A DNA stretch of 63,296 bases, filler included, from Reclinomonas americana ATCC 50394 (Eukaryota): assembly GCA_048213135.1 (NCBI GenBank). It is 4 parts of 3 records of this genome, joined end to end, with 100 filler letters (N's around TTAATTAATTAA, not from the genome) between each part and the next. Parts side by side here need not be neighbours in the genome. Positions count along the whole stretch, not along the records: positions 1 to 25,676 come from PS015513.1; positions 25,777 to 46,432 come from PS015513.1; positions 46,533 to 61,751 come from PS015514.1; positions 61,852 to 63,296 come from PS015518.1. One strand, 5' to 3'. Positions within the stretch are counted from its first letter, which is position 1. The number at the start of each line of letters is the position of its first letter. The notes under the pieces were generated by a model, which searched no databases, was not told the origin of the DNA, and saw nothing but the letters and a program-made list of their open reading frames with translations. Of the stretch, positions 1-62,962 are shown in pieces. The translations under genes were made by a program, and so were the position numbers.

Positions 1-1344
1 TGTGCGCGCATGACAGTGAGAGTGAGTGTCACATTTGAGGATGCTTGAGCGTGCAGACCGACTGGGCGTCGGCGATGCGAGCGGCCAGTGCTGGAGTGGA
101 GGCGTTGAGTGATTGCAGTGAGCCTCTGGCGCCCATGCTGCGGTGTCGATTGCTGTCGCGCAAGGCTCTGGCGGTGCATCAGTGCAAGCGACCGAGTGCA
201 GTGCTGCGCGATAGTTGCGTTTGTCTGTCTGTCTGTGTGCCTTCTCAGCTCCTCGTGCTGCTGTCGAGTTGACGCGTCTTGTCGGTAGCGCTGGCCATGC
301 TGAACTCGGTGTTTGAGGACGATGCGGAGGCGCTGTGGGCGTCGGTGGTGCAGCCGTTTCGAGAAAAGGAGCTGGAGTTGTCATTCTGGGTGGCGTGGGA
401 GGAATCGCTGCCGCTGTCGACGCTATCGGTGGCCACGCGACTGGCGATCTGTCGGCAGTGTGTGCGACTTGGCGAGTACGACGAGGATGTGGTGTTGAGA
501 GTGGTGGCGGCGGAGATGATGAGTCGGCATGGCGATGAGCTGTCGTTCTCGTTGGATGAGGTGTGCTCCGAGTCGATGCTGGGTGCCATGCTGGGCGGCC
601 TCATGGAGCGGTACCCGAACGCGGGCGAGTGGATCGCGTCGGCGTCTCGTGATGCACCCGAGCAGAACATGGTGTACAGTTCCGAGGCCGACGCCGTCCT
701 CGGCGTGTTTCGACGCATTGTGGATCACGGTGAGCACCTCACCTCCCTCCCCCCCCCTCTCTCGCCCCTCGTGTCTTCTCACTGTTGGAGAATGGGTGGC
801 AGGCGAGGATCGGCATCGGCAGGTTCTGCAAGACGACCGCCGTTTCGCTCTCATTCTCGGTTTCTACCTCATGTTTTCACTCAACATGGCCGAGCCGGCC
901 ATGGTGCTGGCACGTCAGCTGGTTGGCCTCGGTCGTTGCGTTGTGCCGTGTGAGTGTTGTTGTGGGTGAGGTTCATGTGCTCACCGCCGACTGGCATGCA
1001 GCCGAGTGGAAGCAGCTGCTGGTCGATCTGCACTTTTTCGATCGCATGCGCCACGTGACAGGCCTCGCCCGCACCCCCGACGAGCAGATTCAGTTGTACA
1101 AGCAGTTCCTGTTGGAGATGGGCTTCACCGAGGGTGAGGTATTTTGCTGTTGTTTTTGTTTTTGTTCTTCGTGTGCTCATCGCGATGCTGCGCGGCAGAC
1201 GTGTTGCCGGAGCGTGCGCCCGTTCAAGACCCGCTGCCACCAGCGCGTCCGGTCATGTCGCCTCTGGTACCAATGTCGGTGGAGTTGGTGCCGGAGCTGC
1301 CGGCTGGCCACCCGGCGAGCGAGGACTTCCCGATACCGCGTTGA
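1..1344 (+). CDS. Hypothetical protein, 3' part (5' end outside the window); about 5 exons
   Basis: Introns 214-288, ~731-790, 935-1001 and ~1134-1198 join the frames into ...LRD-TLAMLNSVFEDD...DH-EWVAGED...VGLG-PEWKQLL...FTE-DVLPER...FPIPR*. No family recognised. Confidence 0.7.
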
Positions 1345-1543
1345 CGAAGAAGATTCAGTGAATACGTACCCCCAGCAGCACAAGGAAGAAGAATCACCAT
1401 GATCGAGCAGGCAGTTGTCTGGCCAGCATCGACGTGCAGTCGTCGCGACATGATCGATCGTCTTCACACACAACGCACGCGGGTTTGAGAGAGCGGAGGC
1501 AGCTGCAACAACACTTCCAACGAATAGATTCACAGGGGAAATC

Positions 1544-2442
1544 ATGAGTGCTGCAACGGTGGCCCGCAATGTTCTTTTGCTCAGCTCGGGCATGTTGTTA
1601 CGAAATTCACACGATTGATTCTGGTGCAGAAAGAATAAGTTTCTCACAACGGTCGTCTTGTCATTGTTGCCAGTGGCCTGAGTGGCCTTCATCATCTCCT
1701 GTTCCCCGCCTCGGCGGCAAGCGTGCTGCTCGGTGCGTGCGCGCGCGTGTGTGTGTGAGTGTGTGTGCACGCAGAAAAGAAGCTCGAACGGGAGAATATC
1801 AGGCAGTTTCTGCGCTGACGTCCGCGCGCGCGCGCGCACGTGCGTGCTGTCGTTGCTGAACATGTGCATGTGTCTGTTGTGCCACAGGCGTCTCCAACCC
1901 CTCAGTGGAGCTCCGCACAGTGCTGCAGGTGCGTGTCAGTCGTTGAGGGTTCTTTCTGTTTGTGGGATCTATTCTTTTTATGTCCGTGGGGGATACAAGC
2001 TCTTCACGACCTAATTCCAACCACATTCCTGCAACTCCGCAGACTTCTGGATGCGCATTCCTGCTGCTGGCCGCCGTGCTGTTCTTGTTGCGTTACGAGC
2101 GAGTGAGCGACACTTCATACACGGACAGTGAGGGAACGAGAGCGCGATGTACATTTTCTTCGAGCCGCCCGATTTGTGTGTACGACCTAAAATGCGCACG
2201 ACAGCTTGCCAATCACCAAGATGGCGCTGCGTGCCGCCGGTACCGGATTCATCATCAGCGGCCTCGGCATGCTGCTGACGTTCTACAACATGTCGGTGGT
2301 CAGCACCATCTGTTGGATCCAAACCGGCCTGCATCTCGGATTTGGCATTGTTCTCCTCACGAATCCGGGCATGCATCTCCCCGCCATGCCACGCCTAATT
2401 CAGGGCAACGGCATTCACCAACCGGAGAAGAAGAACGAGTGA
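1544..2442 (+). CDS. Small four-TM membrane protein with a C-terminal KKxx ER-retrieval motif
   Basis: Five exons give MSAATVARNVLLLSSGMFGLSGLHHLLFP...GVSNPSVELRTVLQTSGCAFLLLAAVLFFLPITKM...QPEKKNE*, with four hydrophobic segments. Donors at 1597 (GTTACG) and 2087 (GTTGCG). Confidence 0.75.
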
Positions 2443-2715
2443 CGGAGGCAAAACGGCAAGGAGAAACGGTTGTGTGCGTGTGTGTGGGCAAGCCAGCGAG
2501 GTGAACAACAAGTGGACGCGTGGAAAGTCAGTGTATAGCTGTACTCCAGGGCATAGGATTATATAACGTCTTTACACATGGGCTAGTTGCGTAACCAAAG
2601 GACAGCGGGTACAGTGCGAAGAGTGGGGAACACAAGGGTAGAGGGAGAGAGAGAGTTAGAGACTGCAAAAGAGTGACACAAACAAAAGAAAAACCATTAC
2701 TCTACAGAGAAACCA

Positions 2716-3644
2716 TTATCGAACATGTGCATGCGCAGTCCGAGATCTCGTCGAACGCGCCACGGCCGCGGAGTTAGTCGTCGTCAACGATGCGGCCACC
2801 GTCTTGCTCGCACATTCTGCGGCTGCGGTGTTGGCATGGGCGGTGGTGGACATCACCGATCGGTAAGGACATTGTTGCAAGGCGAGCAGCGTCTGTTCGT
2901 ACGGCAGTGGCGCAGGCAGTGTGCGATACACGGACTCTGCGCTAGACATGCGTGCAATGGCGCCCGCGTCACCGCTATAGTACAGTTGCACGTCGGTCAA
3001 GTAGGCGCGCTGTTGTAGCAAACAGAGCGGTGATTAGCCCCCGAAGCGCACAGAAAAAAACTCGAGAAACAGAATCTCAGCGGTTCTCACTAGTACCTGC
3101 AGCGCGAGAGATACCGGAATGCATAATGGTACCGAGGAAAGAATAAGAAGAAGAAGGGAAGGAAGGAGGGTGTGGGAAGGAGGAGAGCGCAAGAGCAGCA
3201 GTGCGCGTGTGTGGTGGCTTTGCTGCATTAGGGTAAACAGGATTGGAACTGAAGAATTGGACGCCATTCGCCGACTCAACAGCCACACATCCCTTCCCTC
3301 TCACTCTCTCCCCGAGGGGGAGGAGAGAGCGGGCGTCACGCAACGCGAAAAAGAGACACACGGAAGCGAGAGAGAGAAAAGAAAGAGAGAGAGAGTGTGT
3401 GACTGAGAATCGAATGTCGGGAAACACACACACACACCAGTGACTGCAGGGCCTCGGTCACTCGCGGGTCGTCTTCGAGGCATGCCATCGCGTGTTCTTC
3501 TTGCTGATCAAAAGTCATGTGCGTTTGTGTTTGTGGTGTGGTGGTCTCCTCTCCCGACTTGCTCAAAACAGAAAAAATGTCAACAAATTCAGACAATAAT
3601 TTGTCGACGAACAAAGTTTGACAGAAATCAACAGAAAAAGGCAA
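2716..3644 (-). CDS. Possible hypothetical protein (exon structure unresolved)
   Basis: Coding-looking ORF segments at 2716-3021 and ~3437-3644 separated by GA/CA-repeat intron-like DNA. No motif. Confidence 0.3.
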
Positions 3645-5979: not shown

Positions 5980-6675
5980 ATGCGCGCCACTCTCCTCCTC
6001 CTCGTCCTGCTCATCGCTGCCACTGTGCTCGTCGCACTGTGCGCAGAGGCCGCGCGTATGCCCATGCCAGGTAACGCGCACATAGTCTCTCTCTTTCTCA
6101 CACTCGTTTGACACTCTGACACACACTGTGACACACAGGTGGCCAGTTCCCAGTGGGAGTTGCGTGCCTCTCATTAAGAGAAAGACAGAGAGAGAGAGAG
6201 ACAGAGATTGCGCGCGAATCATCTTTTCTCACTCATTCTCTCGCATGTAGTCGGGCGACCTTGAGCGCGAAGACATTGTCGCTGCTGCGCAGGTACTGTC
6301 CTCTCTTGCTCTTCTCCTTCTTTGACTTCTCTGTCTTCACACGTGCGCATTCTCCGAACACAACAGGCCGCTGTCTCGCACATTTCCTCGACACAGAATC
6401 TGCGCGTGCAGCTCAGCCGTGTCACGCGCGCGGCCACACAGGTTGTCGGTGAGTGAGCGCACTCAACTCACCTCTGCTCTCTCGTTGGCTTGTCACGCGC
6501 GCTCACCTCCTTCGCAGCCGGTCTGAACTATTACCTCACGGTGGAGCTCGACGAGCTTGGTGGCGCCGGCAACACCAAGCGCACCTACGATGTCGTCGTC
6601 TATCGCGGCTTTGATCGCAAGTACTCGGTCTCGCGTGTCTCGGAGGTCCACGAGACCAGCTTCGGTTCCGAGTAA
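5980..6675 (+). CDS. Secreted cystatin (cysteine protease inhibitor)
   Basis: Signal peptide MRATLLLLVLLIAATVLVALCAEA, N-terminal PGG and the QVVAG motif (split by an intron, QVV-AGLNYYLTV). Five exons, including a 20-nt exon at 6139-6158. Confidence 0.9.
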
Positions 6676-7629: not shown

Positions 7630-7965
7630 TAAGTCAGTGAACGAGAGAGCAAGTGACAGAGAGGAACGTCATCGCCAAGGAGATGCACCATGCACTGCAC
7701 GCACGAGTGCAAGAGCAAGAGCAAGAGCAAGAGAGAGAGAGAGAGAGCAAGGGATCAACAGCGAAAGCCATCGCCCACAAGAGCAAGAGAGAAGAGAGAG
7801 ACAGCAAGCGACAGAGAAGAGTGCAGTTGCCCAAGTGTGCACAAGTCAGTGAACAAGAGAGAGCAAGCGACAGAGAAGAATGCAGTCTCCCAAGAGATGC
7901 AACCCCAGCTGAGTACGCAAGAGAACAAGCAAGAGAGAGAGAGAGAGCAAGCGATCAACGACAAT
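7630..7965. repeat. Degenerate purine-rich tandem repeat in an intron
   Basis: Recurrent AGAGAGCAAGYGACAGAGAAGA.TGCAGT and AAGTCAGTGAAC units. Confidence 0.6.
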
Positions 7966-8054
7966 GCAGTCGTCCAACGTGCATGCACAAGTCGCATTCC
8001 CCTTCCTCCCCTTCTCCTCTTCCCCTTCTCACTCTCTCCGCCCGTGCACGCAAC

Positions 8055-9676: not shown

Positions 9677-12600
9677 TCATCCGCGACGGCTGGAGCCTGC
9701 CAAACCCACCAGCACATAACTCGACACCATGCCGATGCCCTTGACTGCATGCATGTGCCAGCAAAGGTGAGTGTGCGCGAAGGATGGACTATGCTGCACA
9801 CGCTTTACAACCACGCACCTTCCACACTGGCCGATTCAACATCAAACACACCGCGTGTCTTGCGGTGCGTCGCCTGTGTGTTTCACCATCATTGGTCAGC
9901 GACGACGAAGCCAAGTGCTCTTTTTCATCCCCGCTTCTTTCGCCCTCTCACCTCACTGATCTGGATGGCTCCCATGGGTGCGGAGCTCTCCATGCGCGAT
10001 GCCATGTTTACCGAATCTGACGCAAGATGAGAGAGACGTGGGAGAAAACGCGGAGCAATCAGCTGTCTCCAACCCCACTCACCGCCATACAAGTCGAACG
10101 TGCGAATGAGGCCAGCCACGATGCCCGACGTCACCGGGCCAGTGTTCACGCCGATGCGGAACTTGATCTCCAGTTGTCGCTGCGTGCCAAGTCAGACACA
10201 CGAAACACATGCAGACGAAGAACGAGCGGCTTTCACGAAACTCGCTGACACAAGTCCAATATGACCTGCTTGGCAGCCATCGTAAACTCCACCACCGCCG
10301 TGGCATGATCGTGACGCGGCACGTACATGCCCGACACGGCGAGGTATGCCGACCCTACGTGTACACGACACACACGTTGAGTTCTTGTGGGGAGGCTCGC
10401 TCCCTTTCTGTGTGGCACTCACCAATGGTCTTCACTCGCTCGATATTGTGCTGCTTCACGAGTCTGTCGAACGCGCTCAGCAGCACGTGCAACACCTCTA
10501 TCTTCTCCAGCAGCGACACTTTGCCGTCGCCACCCACTGCCCCTGCATGTCAACGCAGTTTGAGCAACACCAAGAAGATGCGATGCGTCTTTCACCCACA
10601 CACGACCACTGCACCTGCGCTGCCGGCTGCGTGCTGCACAGAGAGCACCTTGACAAATGTGCACGTCACTTCTGGGTGGAACTCAAACATGGTTGGCGTG
10701 TCGTCAATTACATGCTGTGGTGCGTCTGTCAGGTTGGAAGCATTCGGCGGAGAGGAGCGCCACATCAACGCACCGCATCAAGCATGTTGAGCGCGCTGCC
10801 GAACGACGAGGCGGTGAGCTTGTCGAGTGCGGGTCGAGGGAATGACACACCGAGCAACTGCGCCAGGCGATATGAGCCGAAAAACACACACACACACACA
10901 CACACTGATAACAACGGAGACCACCAAACCTCCTGCAAGTTGACATTGCGAGTGCGCTGTTCATACATCGCCTGCAGCTGCGAGTTGCGTTCCGAGATGC
11001 GCACCATGATGCGCTGTCGACCTTCCCACGCCGTCTGGAAGCCACGAACAAGCAGCGACACACTACGCCAGCATTCATCAAGTCAACAGGCACATACTCT
11101 TCTGCTCGCAGTACTCGAACGGTGCACGCAACACTTGTCCATCTTTCCGCGCAATCTCCATCTCGCAGCCACACCCCGACTGCACCACGTCGCGAAGAAC
11201 AAGCGGCCGCAGCAGTGTTTGCACGTTGGCGTGACCTGCGCACACCCATCACAGTTGAGGAGGGCAGTCGCAAGAACAGCAAGCACCGTCAGCGACGCAC
11301 CGGTCAGCTCCTCCACCGAGTACCCGAGAAGCCGCGGCACACCCATGTTGCACCACTCCACCTCTCCATTCTCGTCCGTCCACAAGAGCTGTGCACGATG
11401 AAATGGGATCATAAGCAACACTCGTTCTTTCTCTCTCTCTCTCATTAGATCATGGACACGCAACAGCATCGGTGGTCATGGACAGCAGGTTGGTGATTTC
11501 GTCGATTCGTTCCTCGTACGAGCTGCGCACCTTGGCCTCGTCCATATTGTTGCGCACCACTGCACAAAACATGCGCCCTCCCGGCACCATCACATCGAGG
11601 ACGTGGATGCGCACCGCAATCACTGATCCGTTCTTGCACAGCGCCTTCACCTCGCGCCCACTGTGCACGCACACAGTCAGTGGCGATCAACCAAATACTC
11701 TCGCGCCATCGCCATGTAACACCGCAACTGCAATGCCGCAGCGTGAGCTCGTTCACCAGTCTGCGAGTGCGTTGAGAGATACTGTGCCAGGTACCTGCAC
11801 GTACAACCAGCGACGATCAGATCTATATGCTATTACTCATACTCAATTGTCGCAACCTCGCTTGCACGCAACGAATCATGTCGTTCCGAGTGCGGTGCCG
11901 GCACCAGCATGCGAATGTTTCGACCAACCAGCTCGGCGGCGCTCGTGTAACCGAACAGTTGCACGGCAGCCTCATTCACTTCCTGCACAATGCCTTGCGT
12001 GTCGGTGTAGATGAGCCCGTCCGGCAGCGTGTGCACCATGGAAACCGTCTGCGGTAGTGCGATGATGAGCAAAAGCAAGTGGTTGTGCAAACTGTCCACA
12101 CGCTGCGTACCTTGGCCAGCCGCGCCGCGCCCTCTCTCAACGCAACCAACTTGTCTGCCGCCTCCATCATGGTGACGGCAAAGAATCGTCGTCCATTCAC
12201 CTCACACTCCACCACTGACAAGTCGACGGGCACCAGTCCACCGTCTCGATGGCACGCCTGCAGGAGTGCCTCATCAGCAACGGGCACACGCACGATTCTC
12301 AGGGCATGCACGCACCTCAGTGCGGCGCACAACCGTCAGCGGACGCCGTGTGGCTGCCGGTTGTGTCACGTGCCGGCTAATGTGTGCGTCGTGCACGGCG
12401 TGCAGCTGTGCCGGAATGAGAACCTGCACAGTACGATCCACCATGAGCACAGCTACCACCACCACCAGAGAGACACATCATCCGACCGCAAGCACCTTGA
12501 CGTTCTGGCCCACGATATTGTCGGCGGCATATCCCAGCACGCGCGTGACCATGCGATTGGCGAATTCGATAATGCCCTGCGTGTTGCGGCATGCATCAGC

Positions 12601-15600
12601 AACATCTCCCTCAACCACACACCATCGACAACTCCTCCATACACACCGTCTCCCCAGCCAACAGCAGCACACGACCTGTTCACGACTGAAAATGAGAGAG
12701 TGCAGTAGAGACACAACAGCACTGCACAGCAAGACAGGTGCGAAACTTGCGATGATCTCGCGGAACATGTGCTCGTGCTCGTTCATCGCTCGGTTCACCT
12801 CCATCGAGGCGAGCAGTGAATCTGTGTTTCGCTTCCTCTCAGCCCCACATTGAGGATCAACAGAGCTAAACCAGGGCGCCAGCACGCAACGAGGCAGCAG
12901 CTGCAATTGCAGCTCGGCAACGGAGTTGATCACAGTCGTCGGTACGTGCATGAGGGTGCGTTTGAAGAACCGAATTTGCATGTCCATCTCCGCGAGCAGT
13001 GGTCGCAGCAGAAACACCGCCCCAACAAGAGTCACCAGGAGCCCAGTGACCAGCATGGCCTCGGCCAGAAACTCGGTGCGCTGCACAAAGCGGTCCAGGC
13101 CGTCTTCCAGCAGCTGCGATGCGAGCGATGCAGTGAGAGCACTGTTGCCACATTGCGCACATCATCTCCTCCTCTTCCTACCTGGGAACTGGCCGCAAAG
13201 TAGTCCATGAGGATGTACGTCGAGGCCACCAAGAAGTCCGCAAGATCCAGGTCCTTGGCCGTCGGCGGGTCGTGCAGTGTCGAAGCCAGCAAGTCGGATG
13301 CATCCAACACTCTGTTGATCTGCACGCCAGTGTGAGTGAGACATGAGGTGATCACACCCCATCGATCTCCCCCTCCCACACACCAGTTCATGTATCGGCA
13401 GGCACTTGAGCTGTTGCACCCACGACGGATTGGTGGTCACGGCAGCCTCGGCAGTTGTGCATCGCGCTCCGTACAGCAATTTGTGCTGCTGCTCATCAGC
13501 TGCGGCATCCCACCCATTGTCCATGACTTCGTCGACAACTTGTAGGTGTTTCGCTCTCGTCTACGCACGACACGATGGTGCGTGAGTGTTGAGAACACGT
13601 ATGATTGTCAATCCCACGCTATCGTCTCACCGTAGTCACGAGTCCCTGCAAACGTGCTTGGGTCTGTTCGCGCGGCACCAATCCAACCGGATTGAGGTAC
13701 TGCACAGCCACCATGATCAACACTGGAAACGTGGTGGCACGTGACTGTGCGTTCCCCAGCACGGTCATCTCCCGCACAGTCTCTGCCGCAATCGCCGATG
13801 CACCATACCTGATGAGCAAATGTTAGCGCACAGAAGAACAAAAGGATGCACTGTTTCTTCCAGCCACCACCACCACCACCACCACGCAACGACATGCACG
13901 CCGTGGCGACAAAGGCCACGAGCACAATACAGCAGGCACGGAAGAAGATATTGTGCATAAACTGCATGTCGGCGCGCGTGCACTGCGTGGGCAGGTACTT
14001 GTTCGTCACTGTCGTCGACGGGTGCACTCCCTGTGCCCAAGAACAGCAAGTGACAGTCAGCACATGAAACCAGATCTGGACTCCTTCCTTTCCCATCACT
14101 ACGCAACATCACGAGCAGCCTCCGAGGCCTCCAGGTAGTTGAGGTAGTGGTCGCGCATCTTGTGGTGCACGACGCGCACGTCAGCCTTTGGCACCAGCGC
14201 AAAGGCTCGCAGACTGCGAGTCAGCGTGTGACGAATGCCGAGCACCATGGGCAGGAAGGCAAGCATCAGGAGTGCCACACAGAGTCTGCGTGTTCAGGTG
14301 GCACATTAGTTTGTAAATGAATGAGAAGAACGCATACTAGCACGCACCCGCCAGCCAGCGCAAAGTCAATCCACGCTTCGACACCGTAGCCGTTGGCGAG
14401 TTGCACCGTGTGATCGTTGAACTCTTGTGCGATGCGATACACGGCGTCGTTGGTGGCGCCGCCGTTCGCCAAAGCAATGACAAGGTTCTCCTCACGGATG
14501 CTCATGGTGCGCACAGACATGTGGAACACATCCTAGCGGAGAATTGAGGTAAGCGAACTGGCATAGTACTTCTTATTGCAACACCAGCACACCGCACACC
14601 ATGGTGCTGTCGAGAAATCGATAGATCACGTCGATGGTGGGCACCGTCTGCGACACAAGCTGACCACCGATGTTGTCATACACAATGGTGCGGAATGGAG
14701 CAGTGACACTGACGGCGGAGACGTAGGGTCTGGCAACAAGGATACATCACGGTGAGCAACCCATTGAAACCAACAATGCAGCCAATCTCGGCAGCACACA
14801 CCGCGTGGCCAGCTGGTCCAGAATAATACGCGAGGCAGTCACGTTGGCTGCGAGGAACGGCCGCAAGTCATCCACTTGGGCCGCACCGTTGACACCCGAC
14901 AGCGCGGCACTCCAGATGCGCCACGCCAGCAACGTATTGGTGACTGCGTCGACACACACCGTGGACAGGTCGGCGAAAAAGTCGTTGTTGGACTGGAACA
15001 CCGCAGTCATGGAGTACGATCGTGTAAACACAAAGAGAATGGCCACAAGGCACGCCGCGGTCATGATCAACAGCACCCACAGAGCGCGCGTGATGGTCGG
15101 ATTCTGCGGTTACACACTGAGGGCAGAGAGCTCCATGACTTGGCATCATCGTCCCAGAGACAACTGACCTTTTCGCTGACGATTGTGCGGCGCAGCTGCG
15201 CAGAGCTGGTGCTGTCGGCACTCACACCGGAGCGCATGGAACTGCCACCAGAATGCTTGGAGCTGCGTAATGAGAGTGAAAATGGGGGAAGAGCTATATA
15301 CTGCACACATACAACGGTGCTTGCGTTACCTGCCACCTCCCACCGACGAGCCGCGATCGCTCAGCGCGTCGTTCGCATCGTTGCCGGCAAAATCTGCACG
15401 GCATCGAGAGTCAGCAGTGGGGGAAAAGAGGGCGCACACGTGGCTGCGCACGAAACTCAGTTTCTTCGACGTGCGGCTCCTCGACTACAACAGCAAAGTG
15501 AGCATCGCGTACAGACAACGAAACAAAACAACCAAAAGAAGACAGCACTCACTTCGCCACGTGACAATTTGACGGCGCTGCGTCGCGTGGCTTCCTCTGT

Positions 15601-18473: not shown

Positions 18474-18980
18474 TGCAATGAATATCAAATCGCGTAACCA
18501 GTTGTGCGGTGAGGGAGAGGGAGAGAGTGGTGCGAGAGACAAGTCAGGAGTGGTGGTGACCAACGTCGTGTACGGTGCTGCGAGAAGAGAGAGGTAATGC
18601 GCACGCGCTACGGCGGGGGTAGAGGCAGCAAAACTCTTTTGCGGCCGGCGCGAAAAGTGAATCTGGCACGTCTTCGCGACAAGGCGCGGTGGTGTTCGTG
18701 CACGCAACAGAGGAAAACAGTGGCCGCTGTCGATGCAGCTGCGCCAGCTGCCGGCAGAACTTGTCCACGGAGCCTGTCATGACGCGAAGACCAAGAGACA
18801 ACAACCAACGGCCGAAATCCACACAAGCGTGGCCAGTCTGTCACACACGCACGCACACACAAACAAAAGAAGATCGCTTCAGTGCATGCAGGGTCCCCCA
18901 CGCACACAGAGTGAGTCACACACACGATCACCCGGTCATGCAAGACGAAGTCACGCAAGTCGGCAAACTCACCAAGAACG
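18474..18980 (-). CDS. Probable extra 5' exons of the PAS-cyclase gene, or a small separate gene
   Basis: The frame stays open upstream of M18473. Exon ...CRQLAQLHRQRPLFSS followed by GTTGCG (18708) can splice in frame to IHFSRRPQ. Confidence 0.35.
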
Positions 18981-25720: not shown

Positions 25721-25732
25721 TTAATTAATTAA
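25721..25732. other. Artificial scaffold-concatenation linker
   Basis: TTAATTAATTAA (stops in all frames) flanked by 44 Ns on each side. Confidence 0.95.
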
Positions 25733-46400: not shown

Positions 46401-46476
46401 CTGCGGGTGAGAGAGGGGAAAGGAGAGGGAGGNNNNNNNNNNNNNNNNNNNNNNNNNNNNNNNNNNNNNNNNNNNN

Positions 46477-46488
46477 TTAATTAATTAA
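46477..46488. other. Artificial scaffold-concatenation linker
   Basis: N44-TTAATTAATTAA-N44. Confidence 0.95.
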
Positions 46489-46532
46489 NNNNNNNNNNNN
46501 NNNNNNNNNNNNNNNNNNNNNNNNNNNNNNNN

Positions 46533-49535: not shown

Positions 49536-49768
49536 TCCACACCTTTTCTCGCGACAAGGCAGAGAAACGTGAAGTAACGGTGCAATCAAATGTTATTTGT
49601 CCAGAAATCCACAACTGCCCTCGCCAGCATTGTGTGACGACATTTGGCGGGTTAGAAGCCAACCACCTCTCACTCAGCACGCACGCTGTCGTTACTCTAT
49701 CTTCTCCTCCCCTCTCTGTGTGTGTCAGAGAGAGAGAGAGAGAGAGAGAGTGTGAGTGAGTGAGAGCA

Positions 49769-52700
49769 ATGAGCGCCTCCTCGCCCACACACGATGCCAA
49801 TGGCAGCAGTGGCAGTGGCAGTGCATTTACTCCGCTGGCCACCATGCGACGACGCTCTTCACTGCCGTCGTTTGTGCACAGTCGCAGCATCATCCGCCCT
49901 CCACCTGTCAACACCAAGTGGCGTTCCATTGTCGAGTGGGACGAGGGCGTTCCACTGCCGATCTCCACACACGAGGCGGCGGCGGCTCTCCGCGACATGA
50001 TTCCGACTCGTCCGCGCGCTGCCTCCCCGTCCTCATCGACGCCACCACACACGCGCAAGAGCAAGAGGAAGAAGAAGAAGACCAAGAAGCCGGTGGCCAC
50101 GGATCGCGAGGAGCAAGAGATGCAAGTGAGTCCGCAATATGTGCTCGATTCGCGGGGTGCGCCTGCGCGGGAGGAGCCNNNNNNNNNNNNNNNNNNNNNN
50201 NNNNNNNNNNNNNGCAGACCCATTCGGTGCCGACGCTGGAGGGCACTCGCCTTGTGCGGCCTTCATCGGAGGGCACGTCTGCATCGTCGCGCTTTGTGGA
50301 TCGGATTCGCCAGCAGGCGGCCGAAAGTCGACGCGAGAGATCAATATCGCCGCCGCCGCAGCAGAACGGACAGGCGTCTGGCATGTCGACGCCAGTCAAG
50401 AATCTGCGTGGGCCCGCCGGGGAAGAGCAGCAGCAGTCGCCGTACCGCAACCTGCAGTTGGACACGTCGGACTCGGGCCTCAAGGATCGCACTGTTGCCG
50501 CGTCGCGTGACGACTTTTCCGACGACGAGTCGGTGATTGTCGATGACGATGATGACGATGATGATGATGAGGAGGGTGACGTGCCGACTGCCGTGTCGTT
50601 GACCATGGCCACGGCCTCGTCGGAGGCCCCCGAGTTCCCGAACCTGCGGAACTTGCAGCACATGACGGTGGCGGAGGAGGCGCAAATGCAGCAGCGCATC
50701 ACCACGCTGCGCACGCTGCACAAGTTTGTGCCGGCTGCGGTGGTGCACTTGGCGGAGCGGCTGGCGGGGCGAAACCTGAGCATCACTGCCGGCTATCGGC
50801 AAGAGTACGAGGGCTGCCTCATGCTGGTCGACGTCTCCGGTTTCACGGTGCTGGCGGAGACACTCTGCAAGACGGCCGCCGGTGTCGACTCGCTCTCGCA
50901 AGTCATCAACGAGTACTTTTCGCGTCTCATCGACTTTGTGGATCGGTGTGGCGGCGACACGCTGTATTTTGTCGGCGACGCACTGGTGGTGTTCTTCCCG
51001 GCGGTGATTGAGAACTCGCAGACGGAGAGCGGTGGCTCAGGCGCCGCCGCTCGAGATACGTTGTCCTCCAGTCCGCCGCCGCCACCTCTGGGTAGCCGAG
51101 TGCGCGAGCGGTCGTCGTCCATGGGTGGTGTGCCGGTGCCGGATCGGGAGCGCGACACGCTGCTGCCGACCGTTGGCTCCGAGCACGGCTCGTTTGCGAG
51201 TGAGACCGGTCTGCGCCGCTCTCCGTCAGTGTCGCGTCGCGCACACACGCCGCCGACTGGTGGGGACAGCGACTTGAGCTCCGGCAGTGGTGGCAGTGTG
51301 CGCAGCAATTCGTCGTCCGCGAACAGTCCGGCGTTTGGCAGCAGCGTTCCGTCGTCGTCGGTATCGACCACCCATCAGCGACAGCAGGCGCAACGAGAGC
51401 AGATGGAGGTGGCGCTGCAAGTGGCCGCGCGCAACGCCGCCTCCTGTGCCGTGCTGCTGCAACGCGAGGCCGGCTGTTTCAAGTTCCGCGATCTCACGCT
51501 CACCTTGCACATTGCATTCGCCACCGGCAACATCCAGTGCGCCATGCTGGGCGGCCATCAGGACACGGTCAAGTACCTGTTCAGCGGCTCGGCGTACTCC
51601 AAGTTGGCGGAGACGGCGACGCTCTCCGGCAACGGCGACATTACACTGTGCGGGCGCACCCGGCAGCTGCTGATGATGCAGTTGCGACGCAACAGCGTGT
51701 GGAACCTCAACAGCGCTCCGCCCGACGCTGCCATTGCGTACGAAATGCTGAGTGACGTGGAGCTGCGTGGATTGGGTTGGCGAGAGATTCGTGGCATCGA
51801 CGGTCCGCTTGGCGAGGGCGAGGCGGCAGCGGAGGAGGCTGAGGAGGGCGACCCGTTGCAACAGGTGTGGCTGCTGCAGTTCTCGCCGAGCGCCAAGGTG
51901 ATTGTGTGCGAGGAACGTGATGGTGAGTGACGACTGTCGGTGTTTGTTTTTCCTTTGGATTACCTTGTGTACTGACGTGCCTGTTTGTAGCGAGTGCCGC
52001 GAGTCGAGAGGCACTGGACCCGCACCGTGCGCTGTACGGCAACGGAGCGCCAGAAGTGCTGCTCACGTCGATGAAGGCACTTGTTAGCGACCACATCCGA
52101 CCGACAATCTTGCGCGCCGCACCGATTGTGCCGCAGCTACTCGACGTGACAGTGCTCTTTGTGTCGTTCTGCAAGTCACCGGAGCACGCCCAGGAGAAGC
52201 TGCGCGGTCGCGACTGGTGAGTGATGGAGGACGAGGGCGCACGGGGGAGAGAGAGAGAGAGGAGGAGAGAGAGAGGAGGAGAGAGGAGGGAGGAGAGAGG
52301 AGGGAGGAGAGAGAGGAGGAGGGAGGAGAGAGANNNNNNNNNNNNNNNNNNNNNNNNNNNNNNNNNNNNNNNNNNNNNNNNNNNNNNNNNNNNNNNNNNN
52401 NNNNNNNNNNNNNNNNNNNNNNNNNNNNNNNNNNNNNNNNNNNNNNNNNNNNNNNNNNNNNNNNNNNNNNNNNNNNNNNNNNNNNNNNNNNNNNNNNNNN
52501 NNNNNNNNNNNNNNNNNNNNNNNNNNNNNNNNNNNNNNNNNNNNNNNNNNNNNNNNNNNNNNNNNNNNNNNNNNNNNNNNNNNNNNNNNNNNNNNNNNNN
52601 NNNNNNNNNNNNNNNNNNNNNNNNNNNNNNNNNNNNNNNNNNNNNNNNNNNNNNNNNNNNNNNNNNNNNNNNNNNNNNNNNNNNNNNNNNNNNNNNNNNN

Positions 52701-55700
52701 NNNNNNNNNNNNNNNNNNNNNNNNNNNNNNNNNNNNNNNNNNNNNNNNNNNNNNNNNNNNNNNNNNNNNNNNNNNNNNNNNNNNNNNNNNNNNNNNNNNN
52801 NNNNNNNNNNNNNNNNNNNNNNNNNNNNNNNNNNNNNNNNNNNNNNNNNNNNNNNNNNNNNNNNNNNNNNNNNNNNNNNNNNNNNNNNNNNNNNNNNNNN
52901 NNNNNNNNNNNNAGGGAGAGAGAGAGAAGGGAGAGAAGGGGTCGTGAGTGAGTGAGTACGAAAATATGTACAGTCATCGTGGGCTCACCTTTGCTTCGGC
53001 ATGTTGCAGTCCGTTCCAGCAGGCCATGCTGCGCACGCAAGACATTGCCGCCTCGTTCGAGGGCTGCCTCTCCAATGTGTTCGCGGACGAGAAGGGAGTC
53101 GGTGGCATTGTCGTCTTTGGTCTCAATGTCAAGTCGCGCGGCGAACAGAATCGGCGCGGAGTGTTGTGTGCGGCGCAGCTTGCTGCCGTCCTCACCGAAC
53201 TTGGATTCACCGAGGCAACCATTGGCGTCACGTTGCGTAGTCTCATTCTTGTCGAAGTGCGGGTCGGCACCACTGACCAACAACCACACAGATGTGGATA
53301 CACGTACACGGGCACGGTCGGATCGTCCACTCGACGACTCGACTTTACTCTGCTCGGCGACGTGGTCAACACCGCCGCAAGACTCATGGCTGCCGTCAGC
53401 AAGATGAGCATGAACATCAAAGGTGGGATGTGCACCGTGACCTAGTGCCTGCCGTCGTCTCCGCTCACACACCCACTCGCTCGCAGGGAACGCCAAGGTG
53501 CTGCCGGTGCTGTGCGAAGAGCCCGTGTGTCAGTCGTCTCTCGGAAGTCAGCGCATCGGCAGCACAATGTACGGCCTCGATCCGCACCCGCTGTCGCTCA
53601 AGCTGAAAGGTGTGTGCAAGTGCATCACCTCTCCGGTGGCGAATGGAGTCTCATGCCCTACTTTGTTTGTGCACAGGCAAGTCGTCCGATGTGCAATGCT
53701 ATCGGCTCTTGTACTACTCGGAAAAAGCGGCTGTGTCATCGGTGGTGAGCGTCAAGCGTGGCGCCAAGGTGCAGGCGCCGCGAGTCTCCGACGAATTCAT
53801 GTTTGTTGGCCACGCTGCTGAGTTGTCGGCACTGCGTTCCGAGCATGCCCGTGCGCGTGCGCTCCACGCCACCTTCACCAAGGCGCAAGCATCGACCACC
53901 AACACAGCCTCTGGTTCCTCGGCACAGGCTGGCGGATCGCCCACGGAGAGCGTCTCACAGTTGCCGCCGCCACTCGGCTCGTGCGGTCGCATGGTGGTGC
54001 TGCTGGGTCCGCCGGGAGCCGGTGCCTCGACTCTTGTTGCGTTGTGCTGGCCGTTGGTCTCGCTCAGTTGTGTTGCTGAGCATGAATTGCGCCACAATGC
54101 AGGTTCGCCAATTCGTCAAGGAAGCGACGCCAGTGAATACGGCCAAGGCGGCCGCCTCACAAAGCAAAGGCACGGCCAAACCGAAAAAGGGCGTCGGCCG
54201 GTTGCGCGGCCATGTTCGCTTTGACTCGCAGCTGAAGATGCCTGTTTCTGTTGCGTGCTCCGCCTCCATTGATGGTCTGCACATCTGGTCACCATTTGTG
54301 CTGACCACTTGTGGCACTCTCGCACACACAGTTGCCGATCGTGATGGTGTCTAGCGACAGCATCCAGATGGGTGGACCGTTTTCGTCATGGAAAAAGGCA
54401 TTTTCACAGCTTCTCGCCTCCACGCTCTCTTCTGATCGCTACCGCAGCGTTGCTGGGTGCGTTTCTCTCCGCTTGCAGCTACGTTGCTCTGTGCACTCAT
54501 TGTTTGCGCAGCCTGTCGTCTCGCAATGGAACATCGCGAGCCTCGCTTGTGCAACACCTCCTGCTGGAGTTGCAGATGCGCTCGTGGGCCCCGCTGTTGA
54601 ACCCGGTGCTGGACACGGGATTCCGCGATGCGCTCCCGCTGCAGAATCTGTCGCAGCGCGAGACCGATGAACGGCGCCTCCACTTGGCCGTCATGCTCTT
54701 TGACCACATGCTCAAGTATGTGTACGGTGAGTCCGATTGATTGGCAGCTCGAAAGGTGAATTTGCGCGCGTGCTCACGTGTGGCGGCGACACAGGATCAC
54801 TGCATGGCTACGCAATTCTGGTGCTGGAGAATGCCCATATGATGGACGAGTGGTCACTTCGTCTGCTCAAGACGTTCCTGCTCACCAATCTGGAAGTCCG
54901 TGGTGCGCCACTCCGTCGCCTGCCCTTCTTCATGGTGGCGTGCCTGCGCTCGGCGTTGTTTATCGACCGTGAGTTTGCGGACACGGACGCCGCTGAATCC
55001 GAGGTCCGACGTGGTCTCGGCATTCCGCGCCGTTCAATGGAGCACGTGACGGTGTGTGTGGGGTGTGTGCTGGGCAGCTCTTCTTGGTTGGTGCCTGACT
55101 TGTTGACATAGATTGTACCCATTCGCTCGTTCGACCTGACGGAGTGCGGCTTGTTCCTCGCTCAGTTCACTCAGGCCGCCGTCTCCGAGCAGGTGAGTGA
55201 ATGTAAAGAAAGAAGAGGGAAATAGTTGTGGTCATGTCATGAATCTTGTGTGCGCTTGCAGGTCACTGCGGAGCTGTATCGTGGCACCAAGGGCTGCCCC
55301 GGTCATCTGGACCTCATGACGCGTGCTCTGCTGAAGAGCAATGTGCTGGCCATCGACAATGGCGTCTGTCGGGTGCGTGAGCCAACATGGCTGCTCTTTC
55401 GCGCGCCTGTGGTGATTTTCTGACTGTTTTCCCTTCCAGTTCTCACGCACAGGCTACGAGACCGTGTTGGATGCGTCGAACAATCTGGGTGCACTGCTCG
55501 AGCACCAATTCGACTACCTCAAGCACACGGAGCAAGACGTCTTGCGAATCGGTGCGTAGTTCATGGAACCGATCGCGAGTGAGTGCGATGGGTGCGTGTC
55601 GCTGACATACAATACGTGCAGCGAGCGCGATTGGTCAATCATTCACCGTGCACTTCTTGTACGCGGTGTACGCCTCGGTCTATCGGGACTCGACGTGTAC

Positions 55701-58700
55701 AGCAGAGGAGATGGGAGACATTCTGGAGAGTTTGGTGAACGAAGGCCTGCTGGTGCACTCGCAGAGCGGCAAGTACATGCAGTCGGCCGGCGGCTCCGAC
55801 GACGAAGATGAGGAGGAGGACGACGCGAGCGATGGGTTGCTGACCGACGACGACGGCGAAAGCGAGCAGCTGCACTACGAATTCCATCACAGCAGCACGC
55901 GCTTTGCGCTCTACCACCAGATGCTGCCGTCGCGTCGCAGCAAGTGCCATCGCGTGGTCTACGATTTGCTGAAGCAGCGCATTGCGGTGCGCGGACTCTC
56001 AATGTGTTGCTTTCCCTGCCGCCATGTTTCCGTTTCTGACTCTGGTGATCGCTGAAAACAGGAGCGCACACACAATGGCGAGTCGTACAATGAGCAGATG
56101 CAGTCTCTGGTTGGTGCAACTGTGGTACTGTTTTTTTCTTAATAATGTGTTGTCTCACCAGCAGTCACAGCTCCCCGAATTGTCGCACCACGTGTACTAC
56201 AGCCTGGTCGACAGCATCTGCGAGTATCCGAAGGAGACGCGCGCCACAAGTGCGTCGTGTTTGAAGTGTTGAAAAGGGGTTATTTTCTCATCTCTCCATT
56301 GCTCCACAGACGCTTTGCTGCGGCAGCAGGTAATGGAGGCCGCGAACTTGATGCGACAGCATGCGTTGAACTTGGTGGAGGCCTGCATGTATCGCGATGC
56401 TATCGCCACATTCGACAAGGCACTCCGCCTCATTCACGAGTGCGGCTACGTCAAGAACGACAGCGAGTTCCAGTACCTCGAGTTCACTCTGGTCAACGTC
56501 GTCGGTCAGTGTATGATCTCTATCGGTGGCAACGTGGCGGAAACCGAGCGCGCGCTGACCCGCGCTCTGTCGCTGGTGCCGGCACCCGTGGCCGTTGCGT
56601 CGATTTGTGCTGCGCTGCTGAGATACCATCAAGAGTGAGGTTCTTACCCATCAACAGGGCCAGGAGGACGCATTCGTGCAGCCGCGCTACGACGTGCTCA
56701 GCAATCTGTGGAGTCTGTACACGACGCACGGTCACCGGCACCCGACAGCCGATTCGAACAAGTTGTGGGATCAGCTGCTTCGATTGATTCCAAAGCTGGC
56801 GGACGAGAAGCGCTTGATTGACGTCAATCGGTGAGTGTTCCACAGCAGCATCACCTCTGTGCCTAGGTGATTGTATTCATCGCTTCACTGCACAACAGCA
56901 TCGGCACGCTGCACTTGGCGGAGATGGGCGACTTGCACGGCTCGCTCACGTACTTCCGCGAACTGAGCAACATGTACCAGCTGGAGAAGCATCGCGACAT
57001 TCTGGTGGAGTACCCGCGCGTGCTCGATCCCGGTTTGCACGCGTACACGAGGGCGAGTGTCAATTATGTTTTGCTGGGCGAGAACGGCAACGCCATTCGG
57101 TATCTGGAGCTGGCGTTGGAGATTTGCCGTGCCATCAGCCACAACCTCAGTCGCGAGTACTTTTTCCTGCGTGCGGGGTTCGTCCTCAGCTCTGTCAGTC
57201 AGCTAAAGGAGCTGGCGTCGGTGGTGGAGGAAGGCATGCGTATGGCGGAGGAGAACGAGATGGTCGAGTGCTTCCAGGTGTGCCTGTTCTTCTCGTACTT
57301 GGTGGAGTATCACAGTCGAGTGCGGGCGCGCGAAGGTTTGTCACAAAAGGTGGAGTTCTCGTGCTGGTGGCGATGCTCAGTTTGTTTGCGCAGCGCTCGG
57401 CGAAGCGAGTGGCTCATCGGCGGCAGCCGCGCCGGTGCAACTGACGGTGGTCCAGACGGCGGTGGCAAACGCCAAGCAGCAGCCCGGCGGCAGTCGCCTC
57501 CTCAAGGACCTGTTTCAGCGTCACAAGAGCCCGGTGGTGCGCACGCCCGAGGCACTGCTGACTGTGATGACGGAGCAAGTGGACCAGGTGCTGAAGAACT
57601 TGCCCGAGGCGCCGTTTTTGATTGTGCCTCTGGCCGATCTGCTGATTGAGAACGGACGGTTTGCCGTTGCCGGCCGCCTGCTGTCGTTTGCACTGGGTCG
57701 CCTGCGGGCGCACGATTCGCACACGATGCCGTGGATTGCGCTGCAGCGGCGGGTGGGGTGGGTGTGCTGTCGGCGGCTGATTCGGTGGACCGATCCCGCC
57801 AATGAGGATAAGACGATTGAGCCGGTGTTGGTGCGCATAAGGGGGAAGGGAGGGAAAGGGAGGGGCAAGGGGAAGGAAGGGGGAGAAGACAAGGAGAAAG
57901 ATAAGGTGGAGAGTGAGAAGAGACAGGGAGGTAGAATGAGGGGAAAGAGAAGGGCGGACGAAAAGGGAGAGGGGACGGAGAGACAAGGGGAATTAGCCAA
58001 GGGTGCATGCGATGGCTGATGTGCAGAAGTGCACACTGAACAAAAAGACGAAATAGCACTTGTGCAGCAAACGAGTGCGTGTTTGTTGACTTTGATGGAA
58101 TCACGCAGGAATCCGAGTGGCAAAGTGCGATCGACGAGTTGGAGCTGGCGTTGCAGTCGACGAGTCTCGAGTACCGACTGCGGCGCGAGAGGGAGCGATG
58201 TGCGGCTATCCTGTGCTGCATTTGGGCACTCACCAGCCGCCATCACGAAGGGTGCGTCGTGCCGTGCGGAAGAGTTTATTGTGAGCGCACTCTTTAACGC
58301 GATTTGTTGTGCTATGCAGACTGCTGACATGGGCTCGCCAACTTCGAGTGCGTGGGGGCTTGTCTCTAATTGCATTCGTTGATACTTGTCTCAAGTCCTT
58401 GTCGCAGGGCAAGAACACGGACATCGATCTGCCGCCACCGGTGCGCCACGACGCAGCGCTGACGGCGTCGCTGTTTGAGAACATGCCAGACTCGATTCGG
58501 CGTCTGCGCAACAACCTTGTCACCAAGTCGCGTCTGGCGAAAATGACACAAGAGGTAACTTATGTGAGAGAGAGGGAAGAGTTGACTGTGAAGCTCACTT
58601 TGCGGTTGTGGCAGCTTCGCGATACGCTGTGGGGCAGTCTTGTGGACCTGCTGGCCAAACACTTTGAGGACATGACGTTCAAGAGGCGCGACAGCGCGTT

Positions 58701-61712: not shown

Positions 61713-61748
<36 letters not shown>

Positions 61749-61795
61749 CTCNNNNNNNNNNNNNNNNNNNNNNNNNNNNNNNNNNNNNNNNNNNN

Positions 61796-61807
61796 TTAAT
61801 TAATTAA
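61796..61807. other. Artificial scaffold-concatenation linker
   Basis: N44-TTAATTAATTAA-N44. Confidence 0.95.
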
Positions 61808-62470
61808 NNNNNNNNNNNNNNNNNNNNNNNNNNNNNNNNNNNNNNNNNNNNAGAGGGAGAGGGAGAGGGAGAGGGGAGAGAGAGAGACGAAAACGCAGGT
61901 CGCGAAGAAGTGGTGGAGGATGCACTGACGAGACAAGGCGTGAAGTCTGCATCGGACGGGGTTGTTCCTACTATCAGCATTTCTCTTTGTCTGTCTTGTC
62001 GTCAGTATGTATCATTTCATCAGTACCTCAGATGTCTTTCTATCTCTCCGCCTGTATATCTTGCACACAGAATCTCGCTGAGGGTCAACACTCTTTTCTT
62101 GCAGCAGGATGCTTTGCTCCAAGTGAAGGAGTAGAAGAAGCACTTCCATACTTCATATCCACGTCTCCCTTGTGGAAGAAGGCCCTTCCACACACAAACA
62201 CCGCCCCCTAGTGTCCAATGTCTCTCAGTAACGGTCTCCCTCTCTCTGTCTGTCCATCCGCCTGTCTATCGCGGTGTCTATCTATCTCCTGTTTCTCCAG
62301 CAACCGGTGCAACTTCAGCAATCTCAACACAACGGACACTGAAACTCACTCAATTTCTCAATTCTCGCCTCTCCCCTCCCTTCTCCTACTGTCCTCCCTT
62401 TCCCCCTTCCCCTTCCCACTCTTTCCCCTTTCCCCCCCCCCTCCCACGCAACTCTATCCCTCTCCACCAC

Positions 62471-62962
62471 CTCCGGCGCCATCCAATACGGCGTCCCAAT
62501 CATGGTGTTGCGCTTCGAGTACGAGTTGAACATTTGCGCCGACACGCCAAAATCCGCCAGCTTCACCTCGCCGCGCGTGCCCAGCAGCAGATTGCCGCCC
62601 TTGATGTCGCAGTGGATCATGCGTCGCGAGTGCAGATACACGAGACCCTTCAGCACCTCGCGCACCACGTACGCAATGACCTCCTCGGGGAACGGCGCCT
62701 CCATGGCCTCGTACACGTGCGCCACCGAGCCGCCACCCAGGTACTCCATGGCGATCCACAGACGCTCGGGGGTTTGGTAGGCGCCGAGGAAGCGCACAAT
62801 GTTCGAGTGGTCACAGGCTCTCATGAATTCGATTTCCTTGCGGAGGACCTGGTGGTGTGAAGGGGGTGAGGGAGAAGGGGGAATATGAGGGGAAGGGGGG
62901 ATGAGGGGAAGGGGGATGAACGCAACGTCCATGCCTTCGGGGGTGAGGTCGAGGGGGAGAAC
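62471..62962 (-). CDS. STE20-family protein kinase, internal exons
   Basis: KEIEFMRACDHSNIVRF, LWIAMEYLGGGS, IHCDIKGGNLLL, KLADFGVSAQ and KRNTMIGTPYWMAPE. Confidence 0.92.

Follow-up and report, generated by a model that had tools for sequence, protein, structure and literature searches.

GTTGCG 5′ splice sites offset by one base from the canonical donor consensus in Reclinomonas americana

Can a eukaryote routinely splice at 5′ splice sites that lie one base away from where its own donor consensus would place them? This question is raised by a stretch of 63,296 nucleotides (the window) from the genome of Reclinomonas americana ATCC 50394 (GCA_048213135.1), in which a reading of the sequence alone had listed 36 intron donors of the forms GTTGCG, GTTACG and GTTGAG. 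We analysed these donors using the 63-kb window itself and protein homology as the evidence base. The window is GC-rich (about 57% of called bases) and comes from an intron-dense eukaryote. Its parts are joined by a linker, 44N-TTAATTAATTAA-44N, at 25677–25776, 46433–46532 and 61752–61851, and further N runs lie inside the parts. The linkers are artificial, TTAATTAATTAA carries stops in all six frames, and gene models must not cross the joins at 25677, 46433 and 61752.

We refer to donors reading GTTGCG, GTTACG or GTTGAG as class B and to canonical GT[AG][AC]G donors as class A; the class A set (n = 39) was derived from our parser and is noisy. Introns were parsed in two ways. The donor-blind parser permitted any GT as a donor and had no donor or acceptor model, whereas the trained parser started from the same donor-blind state and used its own predictions to fit an unconstrained table of donor hexamers. 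Donor-blind parsers predict too many introns, and a good many of the non-consensus donors that they call must be wrong; the trained parser is self-reinforcing and over-calls. Both were therefore used to measure enrichment, not for annotation. Individual junctions were assessed with Pfam scans of the two flanking exons, each translated on its own and trimmed exactly to the bounds given for the intron. Below, a slash marks the exon–intron boundary and H stands for A, C or T.

Abundance and consensus of the GTTGCG donors

All 36 positions carried the hexamer attributed to them on the strand attributed to them: 33 read GTTGCG, two GTTACG (1597 and 19810) and one GTTGAG (33686). The class had also been said to occur in all four parts of the window and mostly to lack the G at +5. 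We found at least one site in each part, and +5 was C in 35/36 donors and A in 1/36, so that G was absent from this position.

Counted over both strands, the window contains 83 copies of GTTGCG among 7,641 GT hexamers, and T is the next base in 43 of the 83. Claimed and unclaimed GTTGCG sites differed at positions outside the defining hexamer: T was present at +7 in 27/33 claimed but 15/50 unclaimed sites (Fisher p = 4.6e-6), and G was present at −1 in 1/33 and 12/50, respectively (p = 0.012). We also observed that the motif follows the coding strand. On our own strand map GTTGCGT was found 36 times in sense and 6 times in antisense orientation, which made it the third most strand-asymmetric of the 945 7-mers tested and the most asymmetric one that is not a repeat, ahead of GTGCGTG (39:10) and GGTGCGT (30:6). 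When the strand map was taken from the donor-blind parse only, the ratio was 24:5 (p = 5.5e-4). The sense excess of the hexamer GTTGCG (57:21) was on a par with that of the top canonical hexamer, GTGCGT (57:29), and no strand asymmetry was seen for GTTGCA, GTTGCC, GTTGCT or GTTGCG[ACG]. Simple repeats, (CT)n, (GT)n and CAG/CAA, are very abundant throughout the window and dominate its k-mer statistics.

Donor-blind parsing placed GTTGCG first or near first among all donors (10/221 introns, p = 1.8e-4), and further donor-blind parses gave between 4/71 (p = 0.0076) and 5/85 introns (p = 0.0024). GTTGCG was the top donor of the trained parser, with 20/132 introns, followed by GTGCGT (11), GTGAGT (10) and GTGTGT (10). 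This parser recovered 19 of the 36 claimed sites; its class B calls (20 GTTGCG and 2 GTTGAG) made up 17% of its 132 introns, with the other 17 claimed sites missed. In the two genes examined by homology, both picked because they hold claimed sites, class B accounted for 2/7 introns (TMBIM) and 2/3 introns (methyltransferase). The class had been put at about a quarter of 140–150 introns. With the parser and TMBIM figures set alongside it, about 15–25% of introns is a reasonable estimate of the class B share. The strand asymmetry and the flank statistics argue against chance occurrence, and at the level of sequence the GTTGCG observation is confirmed.

Comparison of the two classes revealed a displacement of the entire motif. 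In class A, G was found at −1 in 26/39 donors, followed by G at +3 (36), A (19) or C (20) at +4, G at +5 (39), T (21) or C (15) at +6 and G at +7 (21). In class B (n = 36), we observed G at +4 (34), C at +5 (35), G at +6 (36), T at +7 (29) and G at +8 (18), and positions +5 to +8 thus mirror positions +4 to +7 of class A. The exonic G was nearly absent: class B has T (15), C (11), A (9) or G (1) at −1, and the difference from class A is pronounced (1/36 versus 26/39, Fisher p = 1.7e-9). The same was true of introns pinned by homology, in which G stood at −1 in 5/6 non-B donors and 0/5 class B donors. Class B is class A, including the exonic G and the +7 G, slid by one base. These position tables and the loss of the −1 G support the earlier description of the class as the local consensus displaced by one base.

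The two classes are also complementary. GGTGCGT has a sense:antisense ratio of 30:6 and [ACT]GTTGCGT one of 34:6, but [ACT]GTGCGT shows no excess (27:23); H/GTTGCGT is used, and H/GTGCGT is without sense excess. The preference at +3 is specific to T, as no excess was found for GTAGCGT (0:0), GTCGCGT (5:4) or GTGGCGT (8:10). Downstream, class B is stricter than class A, with C in 35/36 versus 20/39 donors (p = 3.6e-6) and T in 29/36 versus 21/39 (p = 0.016) at the corresponding positions, which is what compensation for the loss of one pair would lead one to expect.

All 36 introns start with GT, and the 35 tabulated ranges (33 listed sites and two extra candidates) end in YAG. Most are 58–86 nucleotides long, and CTSAC-like motifs are visible at their 3′ ends. 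A 3′ position weight matrix trained on class A set class B apart weakly from other GT sites (p = 0.014) but failed to set it apart from unclaimed GTTGCG sites (p = 0.16); a rule-based 3′ signature was not discriminating (background 34%, GTTGCG 48%, GTGAGT 51%). The two classes share 3′ ends and occur within the same genes. On these features, class B introns appear to be ordinary short U2-type GT–AG introns that differ in their 5′ splice site, H/GUUGCGU(G). U12-type introns have the 5′ consensus RTATCCTT; a U12 identity was ruled out, as the donors read GTTGCG. An introner-like repeat family was ruled out by an all-against-all blastn comparison of 35 class B introns, in which the six non-self matches, of 12–14 nucleotides, were the shared first 12 nucleotides or GA repeats.

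Junctions placed by protein homology

A cut at the GT had been said to restore the frame inside conserved motifs. This was borne out in the PIG-P and TMBIM genes, but not for the LAMTOR4 identity or for the cyclase and RGS upstream exons taken alone. Four class B donors were pinned by homology, those at 19810, 24970 and 23491 exactly and that at 20451 as the best-scoring choice. In the TMBIM gene, the 26-residue exon ending at 19811 corresponds to positions 99–124 of the Pfam Bax1-I profile and the exon from 19726 to positions 125–195. A hidden Markov model (HMM) that we built from 26 homologues and used to model the whole gene placed the same joint at 164/165 (139–164 and 165–233). The resulting gene model has seven introns, two of class B and five others, with the donors ctc/GTTGCGTG, gcg/GTGCGTGT, aag/GTGTGCGA, ttt/GTACGTGT, gag/GTACCGTA, ctc/GTTACGTG and atg/GTGAGTGC. 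At 19810 the claimed donor was the best of nine in-frame alternatives (246.1 versus 224.6 bits), and at 20451 it was the best of four (246.1 versus 241.3 bits for a GC donor 3 nucleotides downstream). A 31-nucleotide exon (20346–20376, −) lies between the latter class B intron and a G/GTGCGT intron and is required for the frame.

Positions 8–58 of the PF10237 profile are matched by the exon that ends at 24969 in the N6-adenine methyltransferase-family gene, and positions 59–117 by the exon from 25035. The claimed donor scored best against both homologues compared, P0002 and P0003 (175/151 bits), whereas the GC parse gave 171/147 bits and one more gap each. The closest relative of this methyltransferase, P0001 (63% identity), begins with an N-terminal segment lacking homology; this segment gives way to FDRKW at the very point where the 24970 intron lies, which suggests an unspliced intron at the equivalent place in another GC-rich organism. 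In the PIG-P gene, residues 35–60 of the 61-residue exon before the 23491 intron match profile positions 15–40, H is position 41, the split codon K is position 42, and the next exon matches the profile from position 43 (43–86).

Six more sites (25228, 39138, 40263, 45068, 53232 and 62926) are consistent with domain matches but not pinned by them. The exon upstream of the RGS donor at 45068 ends on a match of ...FYLA to GAIP 38–55, which was its sole match (E = 1.4, against PDB); scanned alone, this exon matched no Pfam family. The exon after the 53232 intron matches 5mbg_A 111–145 (E = 9e-4) and ADCY10 389–419, and the exon upstream of it gave no cyclase match when taken alone. No match was found for the downstream exon of the TRAF gene. 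The three exons of the putative LAMTOR4 gene matched no Pfam family, and this label is unconfirmed. For the ADP-ribosylglycohydrolase gene, we scored 153 alternative junctions with an HMM made from 57 homologues; the junction in question reached 360.9 bits and the best alternative 366.8 bits, which does not discriminate between them. Eleven of the 36 sites are backed only by their motif or by a model of the local frame (1597, 6159, 8054, 13890, 17745, 29999, 35975, 36154, 44005, 45981 and 54250).

The sites in the window, with strand, description and evidence, are as follows.

214–288, +: class B intron, ata/GTTGCGTT...TAG; motif and trained parser
935–1001, +: class B intron, gtc/GTTGCGTT...CAG; motif and trained parser
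1597–1673, +: GTTACG donor, 3′ end tentative; motif only, missed by parser
2087–2204, +: class B intron, ctt/GTTGCGTT; motif and trained parser
6159–6165, +: GTTGCGT donor motif, 3′ end unsettled; motif only
7909–8054, −: GTTGCGTG donor, 3′ end tentative; motif, local frame model only
11063–11132, −: class B intron, PAS-cyclase gene; motif and trained parser
11389–11464, −: class B intron, PAS-cyclase gene; motif and parser, next exon matches PAS_9 profile 7–40 from residue 4
12722–12890, −: class B intron, PAS-cyclase gene, 3′ end from parser; motif and trained parser
13809–13890, −: class B donor, PAS-cyclase gene; motif, local frame model only
14031–14107, −: class B intron, PAS-cyclase gene; motif and trained parser
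15782–15846, −: extra candidate, cca/GTTGCGAT, not listed earlier; parser prediction
17739–17745, −: GTTGCGT donor motif, intron enters an N run; motif only, no model possible
18450–18708, −: class B intron, earlier called tentative; motif and trained parser
19727–19810, −: GTTACG intron, ctc/GTTACGTG...TAG, TMBIM gene; exact by profile, best of 9
20377–20451, −: class B intron, TMBIM gene, followed by the 31-nucleotide exon; best of 4
23423–23491, −: class B intron, PIG-P gene; exact by profile
24970–25034, +: class B intron, N6-adenine methyltransferase-family gene; exact by PF10237, best model, parser
25228–25288, +: class B intron, N6-adenine methyltransferase-family gene; profile 117 then 121 (variable loop), parser
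29999–30005, +: GTTGCGT donor motif; motif only, parser chose GTTCCG at 29994 instead
33615–33686, −: GTTGAG intron, EF-hand gene; motif and trained parser
34435–34513, −: class B intron, EF-hand gene; motif and trained parser
35975–36044, +: class B donor, small gene earlier called LAMTOR4; local frame model, family unconfirmed
36154–36222, +: class B donor GTTGCGA, same small gene; local frame model, family unconfirmed
36716–36775, −: class B intron, the sole site with G at −1; motif and trained parser
36874–36939, −: class B intron; motif and trained parser
37199–37256, −: class B intron after a Q-rich exon; motif and trained parser
39075–39138, −: class B intron, bacterial-like ADP-ribosylglycohydrolase gene; Pfam halves 33–188 and 195–287 in different frames, parser, junction not discriminated
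40263–40324, +: class B intron, TRAF-type zinc-finger gene; zf-TRAF profile 7–49 ends 2 residues before the donor
44005–44090, +: class B donor; motif, local frame model only
44997–45068, −: class B intron, RGS gene; parser, next exon matches RGS profile 47–112
45718–45780, −: class B intron, RGS gene; motif and trained parser
45911–45981, −: class B donor, RGS gene; motif, local frame model only
53232–53291, +: class B intron, soluble-adenylyl-cyclase-like gene; next exon matches class III cyclases from residue 2
54036–54102, +: class B donor after the P-loop exon; parser used the donor with another acceptor
54250–54331, +: class B donor; motif
56594–56657, +: extra class B intron, gcc/GTTGCGTC, not listed earlier; parser prediction
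62446–62452, −: extra candidate donor, aga/GTTGCGTG, where a kinase exon ends; Pkinase match extends to residue 130 of 132 in exon 62453–62848
62849–62926, −: class B intron, STE20-like kinase gene; residue 3 of the next exon is Pkinase profile 46, upstream exon too short to test

An exon downstream of the candidate donor at 62452 was searched for and not found. The large cyclase exon had no matches among longer proteins or metagenome contigs. The kinase exon matched 80 loci, the best of them only 59% identical, which left no close relative for a comparison of donors. More sense-strand GTTGCG(T) sites outside the earlier list lie at 43227 (+) and 28493 (+).

Two of the host genes merit description. 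The large gene at 49756–58700 (+) contains class III cyclase blocks (ADCY10 389–419), a P-loop (GPPGAGAST) and TPR matches, a layout that is, by these matches, soluble-adenylyl-cyclase-like. The ADP-ribosylglycohydrolase gene (38505–39666, −) is split into two frames by a 64-nucleotide GTTGCG intron. Its 120 best listed relatives are 50–58% identical, are about 308 residues long and come from metagenomes, one being named Verrucomicrobiota. From these relationships the gene looks like one that was horizontally acquired and later gained a class B intron. As the gene has its nearest relatives among bacteria and yet holds such an intron, the class is apparently able to arise when introns are newly gained.

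Register of recognition and rival explanations

We favour over its rivals, as somewhat probable, the explanation that U1 (and U6) read these donors in a shifted register and that U1 itself has changed. Recognition would act on the heptamer G-N-U-G-C-G-U. With G as N, cleavage would follow the first G, giving the canonical G/GUGCGU; with U as N, the sole GU would lie one base upstream and cleavage would precede the first G, giving H/GUUGCGU. The 5′ splice site would thus be recognised one base downstream of the bond that is cut. The +1 G would stand opposite U1 C9, in the place of the −1 G, +2 U would be unpaired, +3 U would face A7, and +3 U to +8 G would pair as canonical +2 to +7 do. The contact of the U6 ACAGAGA box with +6 G/+7 U would be expected to be offset likewise, and the catalytic step would take the only GU available. 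As a consequence, exons that end in a base other than G may be followed by an intron.

The textbook U1 end, AUACUUACCUG, showed hardly any pairing with CAC/GUUGCGUGC in any register (−0.6 kcal/mol, ViennaRNA duplexfold), and the alternative donors GUUGAGUGC and GUUAAGUAU would reach −3.8 and −4.5 kcal/mol. Because this end hardly pairs with GUUGCGU, the U1 of this organism is likely to have G facing the conserved C, a change reported in Mastigamoeba balamuthi. C was found at +5 in 35/36 donors despite such weak pairing, and the strict GCG therefore points beyond the standard U1 helix. With a U1 carrying G at position 5 (ACGUAC), the class B minimum lay in the shifted register, at −5.3 kcal/mol, and G/GUGCGU reached −14.8 kcal/mol. 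The earlier proposal that this lineage routinely uses a shifted register is therefore supported in so far as the consensus is displaced, but not as simple human-type shifted pairing by a textbook U1. Searches of the window for small nuclear RNA genes gave no Rfam matches at the gathering score, and the 40 matches with E up to 1 were all microRNA-, small nucleolar RNA- or small RNA-like, on low-complexity stretches, with no U1 or U6 among them. The simple repeats attract such weak microRNA-like matches at about 40950–41190.

Several points weigh against the shifted register. The class A set is the output of our own parser and includes false calls, and the hand-made strand map is partly parser-based. 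The better-pairing GUUGAGU is rare (1/36), and the class B consensus reaches only the −0.6 kcal/mol given above with the textbook U1. Under every U1 that we tried with C at position 8, H/GUGCGU bound more tightly than H/GUUGCGU, and it was the less stable of the two only with a hypothetical ACGCAAC end. As H/GUGCGU shows no sense excess despite its more stable helix, the stability of the U1 helix alone does not explain the choice. Position −1 is not enriched in A or G, as it should be if it paired with U10, and neither a shifted nor a bulged U1 helix predicts that G is avoided there. Finally, Thecamonas and Mamiellales favour C at +4 with a standard U1, according to the text of a preprint (bioRxiv 10.1101/2022.06.08.495308), and a variant U1 is thus not required by a GCG consensus.

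One rival explanation would invoke a second U1 or U1-like RNA dedicated to class B, with a 5′ end fully complementary to GUUGCGU (for example, with A for C at position 8); two co-dominant U2-type donor classes would then each have their own U1. The class is sharply defined, with 33 GTTGCG donors and T at +7 in 29/36, and the ACGCAAC end would pair with it at −11.6 kcal/mol, compared with −0.6 kcal/mol for the textbook U1. The same end gives −10.1 kcal/mol with CAG/GUGCGU and −7.4 kcal/mol with CAC/GUGCGU, which matches the lack of H/GTGCGT donors, and the text of the same preprint reports altered U1 ends matching altered donors in Entamoeba and M. balamuthi (bioRxiv 10.1101/2022.06.08.495308). 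However, ACGCAAC is our own construct, and a perfectly paired class ought to be laxer than class A in its downstream positions, whereas class B is less tolerant there. We regard a dedicated U1 as unlikely, though as a rival to be taken seriously. The canonical U1 register with one of the two U's at +2/+3 bulged would yield as many pairs as the shifted register, and duplexfold picks it when −1 is G. It resembles the human 'bulge +2/+3' register, in which the intron also starts with GUU and one U is surplus to the canonical helix; 68 such sites are predicted and 54 curated among 201,541 in Table 3 of PMC4856993. A bulge, however, would place −1 opposite C9 and favour G there, as in 26/39 class A donors, and G was seen in 1/36 class B donors. 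Moreover, a bulge makes no demand for U, but no sense excess was seen for GTAGCGT, GTCGCGT or GTGGCGT. The near-absence of G at −1, together with the restriction of +3 to T, favours the shifted register over the bulge, to which we assign a low probability.

The motif could also be read mainly by proteins or by components that act later (U1C, LUC7, PRP8, SNRP27 or U6/U5), with its likeness to a slid class A motif being secondary. The very weak pairing predicted with a standard U1 end would fit this, as would the avoidance of G at −1 and the use of H/GUUGCGU over H/GUGCGU, neither of which is explained by helix stability, and changes in SNRP-27 shift the choice among neighbouring 5′ sites in Caenorhabditis elegans, according to the available text of PMC6140464. 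But an offset of the whole motif out to +8 is most simply an RNA–RNA register, and nothing in the window bears on U1C, LUC7, PRP8 or SNRP27; we consider this explanation about as improbable as the bulge, though it too deserves to be taken seriously. Finally, the introns might be GC–AG introns that start 3 nucleotides downstream (GTT/GCGTG), or the donors might be mis-modelled or occur by chance. A slide of 3 nucleotides preserves the frame, so that frame arguments alone are insufficient, the ADP-ribosylglycohydrolase junction was not discriminated, and 11/36 sites are without independent support. At 24970 and 23491, however, profile continuity leaves no space for an extra residue, the GC parse scored lower at 20451 and 24970, and the GTTACG donor at 19810, the junction of which is exact, has no GC alternative. 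Chance is opposed by the strand asymmetry and the flank statistics, and this last group of explanations is highly improbable.

Known systems and meaning

Roca and Krainer reportedly described, in 2009, human 5′ splice sites that are recognised in a shifted (+1) U1 register. In that register every pair that U1 forms with the 5′ splice site is displaced by one position, as set out in the available text of PMC4856993. The sites described here are similar in that the bond cut is one base upstream of the place implied by the U1 register, the GU is followed by a pyrimidine, and the usual '+5' G is at +6. In humans, by contrast, such sites are rare, with all validated noncanonical registers together accounting for 1.5% of 201,541 sites (PMC4856993). 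They are also A-rich (test oligonucleotide .../GUCAAGUAU), whereas here a single motif, GUUGCGU, which pairs poorly with a textbook U1, accounts for about 15–25% of introns. Validated in humans, the shifted register is here predicted from sequence.

One cryptic site of the C. elegans mutant unc-73(e936) is said to lie at −1 (an observation ascribed to Dassah, 2009). In this mutant, a G-to-U change at intron +1 activates cryptic 5′ sites, the use of which is modulated by the SNRP-27 substitution M141T (PMC6140464, available text). The likeness is that a change from G/GU... to GUU... leaves the rest of the signal fixed but shifts the GU available for use by one base, in the upstream direction. 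In unc-73(e936), however, splicing is mutant, inefficient and out of frame, whereas here it would be the normal, in-frame splicing of many genes.

Departures from GUAAGU that extend across a lineage are known from other protists. Entamoeba has GUUUGU donors and a U1 reading ACAAAC, and M. balamuthi has GUGCGC donors and a U1 reading ACGUAC, according to the text of the preprint by Roy and Bowser (bioRxiv 10.1101/2022.06.08.495308). These systems, with U at +3 and C at +4, respectively, provide a precedent, in their matching U1 changes, for the U1 proposed here. They have, however, one transformed consensus in the canonical register, whereas in this window two classes coexist in the same genes with a one-base slide between them. 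The window also differs from the M. balamuthi genome, for which a GC content of 60.7%, a mean intron length of 137 bp and a scaffold N50 of 442 kb are given (PMC8136499). Thecamonas trahens, which is described as intron-poor, and Mamiellales prefer C at +4 (GYGCGY) with a standard U1 in the same preprint, a habit that the canonical class here, G/GTGCGT, shares; the preprint text, figures aside, mentions no GTTGCG class in these organisms. A literature search that did not extend to subscription journals, figures or supplements found no description of GTTGCG/GUUGCG donors or of an off-register class on the scale of a lineage, and a remark in a genome paper is possible; among the matches listed, the literature on shifted U1 base-pairing was all from human, yeast or worm.

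We put it at an even chance that two classes of U2-type donor are co-dominant in this organism and operate side by side within its genes, with a fifth to a quarter of introns cut one base upstream of the register, through either a re-tuned single U1/U6 or a second U1 made for GUUGCGU. For annotation, gene finders that use a single donor matrix and expect G at +5 would miss or misplace about one in five introns here, as our own parser did in missing 17/36 sites. If recognition is indeed shifted, the G of the recognition helix would be supplied by the intron, which would free intron positions from the constraint that the exon end in G. How U1, U6 and PRP8 agree on the exact bond is still an open question in splicing, for which the off-register sites known so far are rare exceptions in humans or mutants in worms. 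With a large share of its genes spliced off-register, an organism would test whether the lost C8:+1G pair is offset by stricter downstream pairing or by a changed small nuclear RNA, and would be a natural system in which to study this hand-off.

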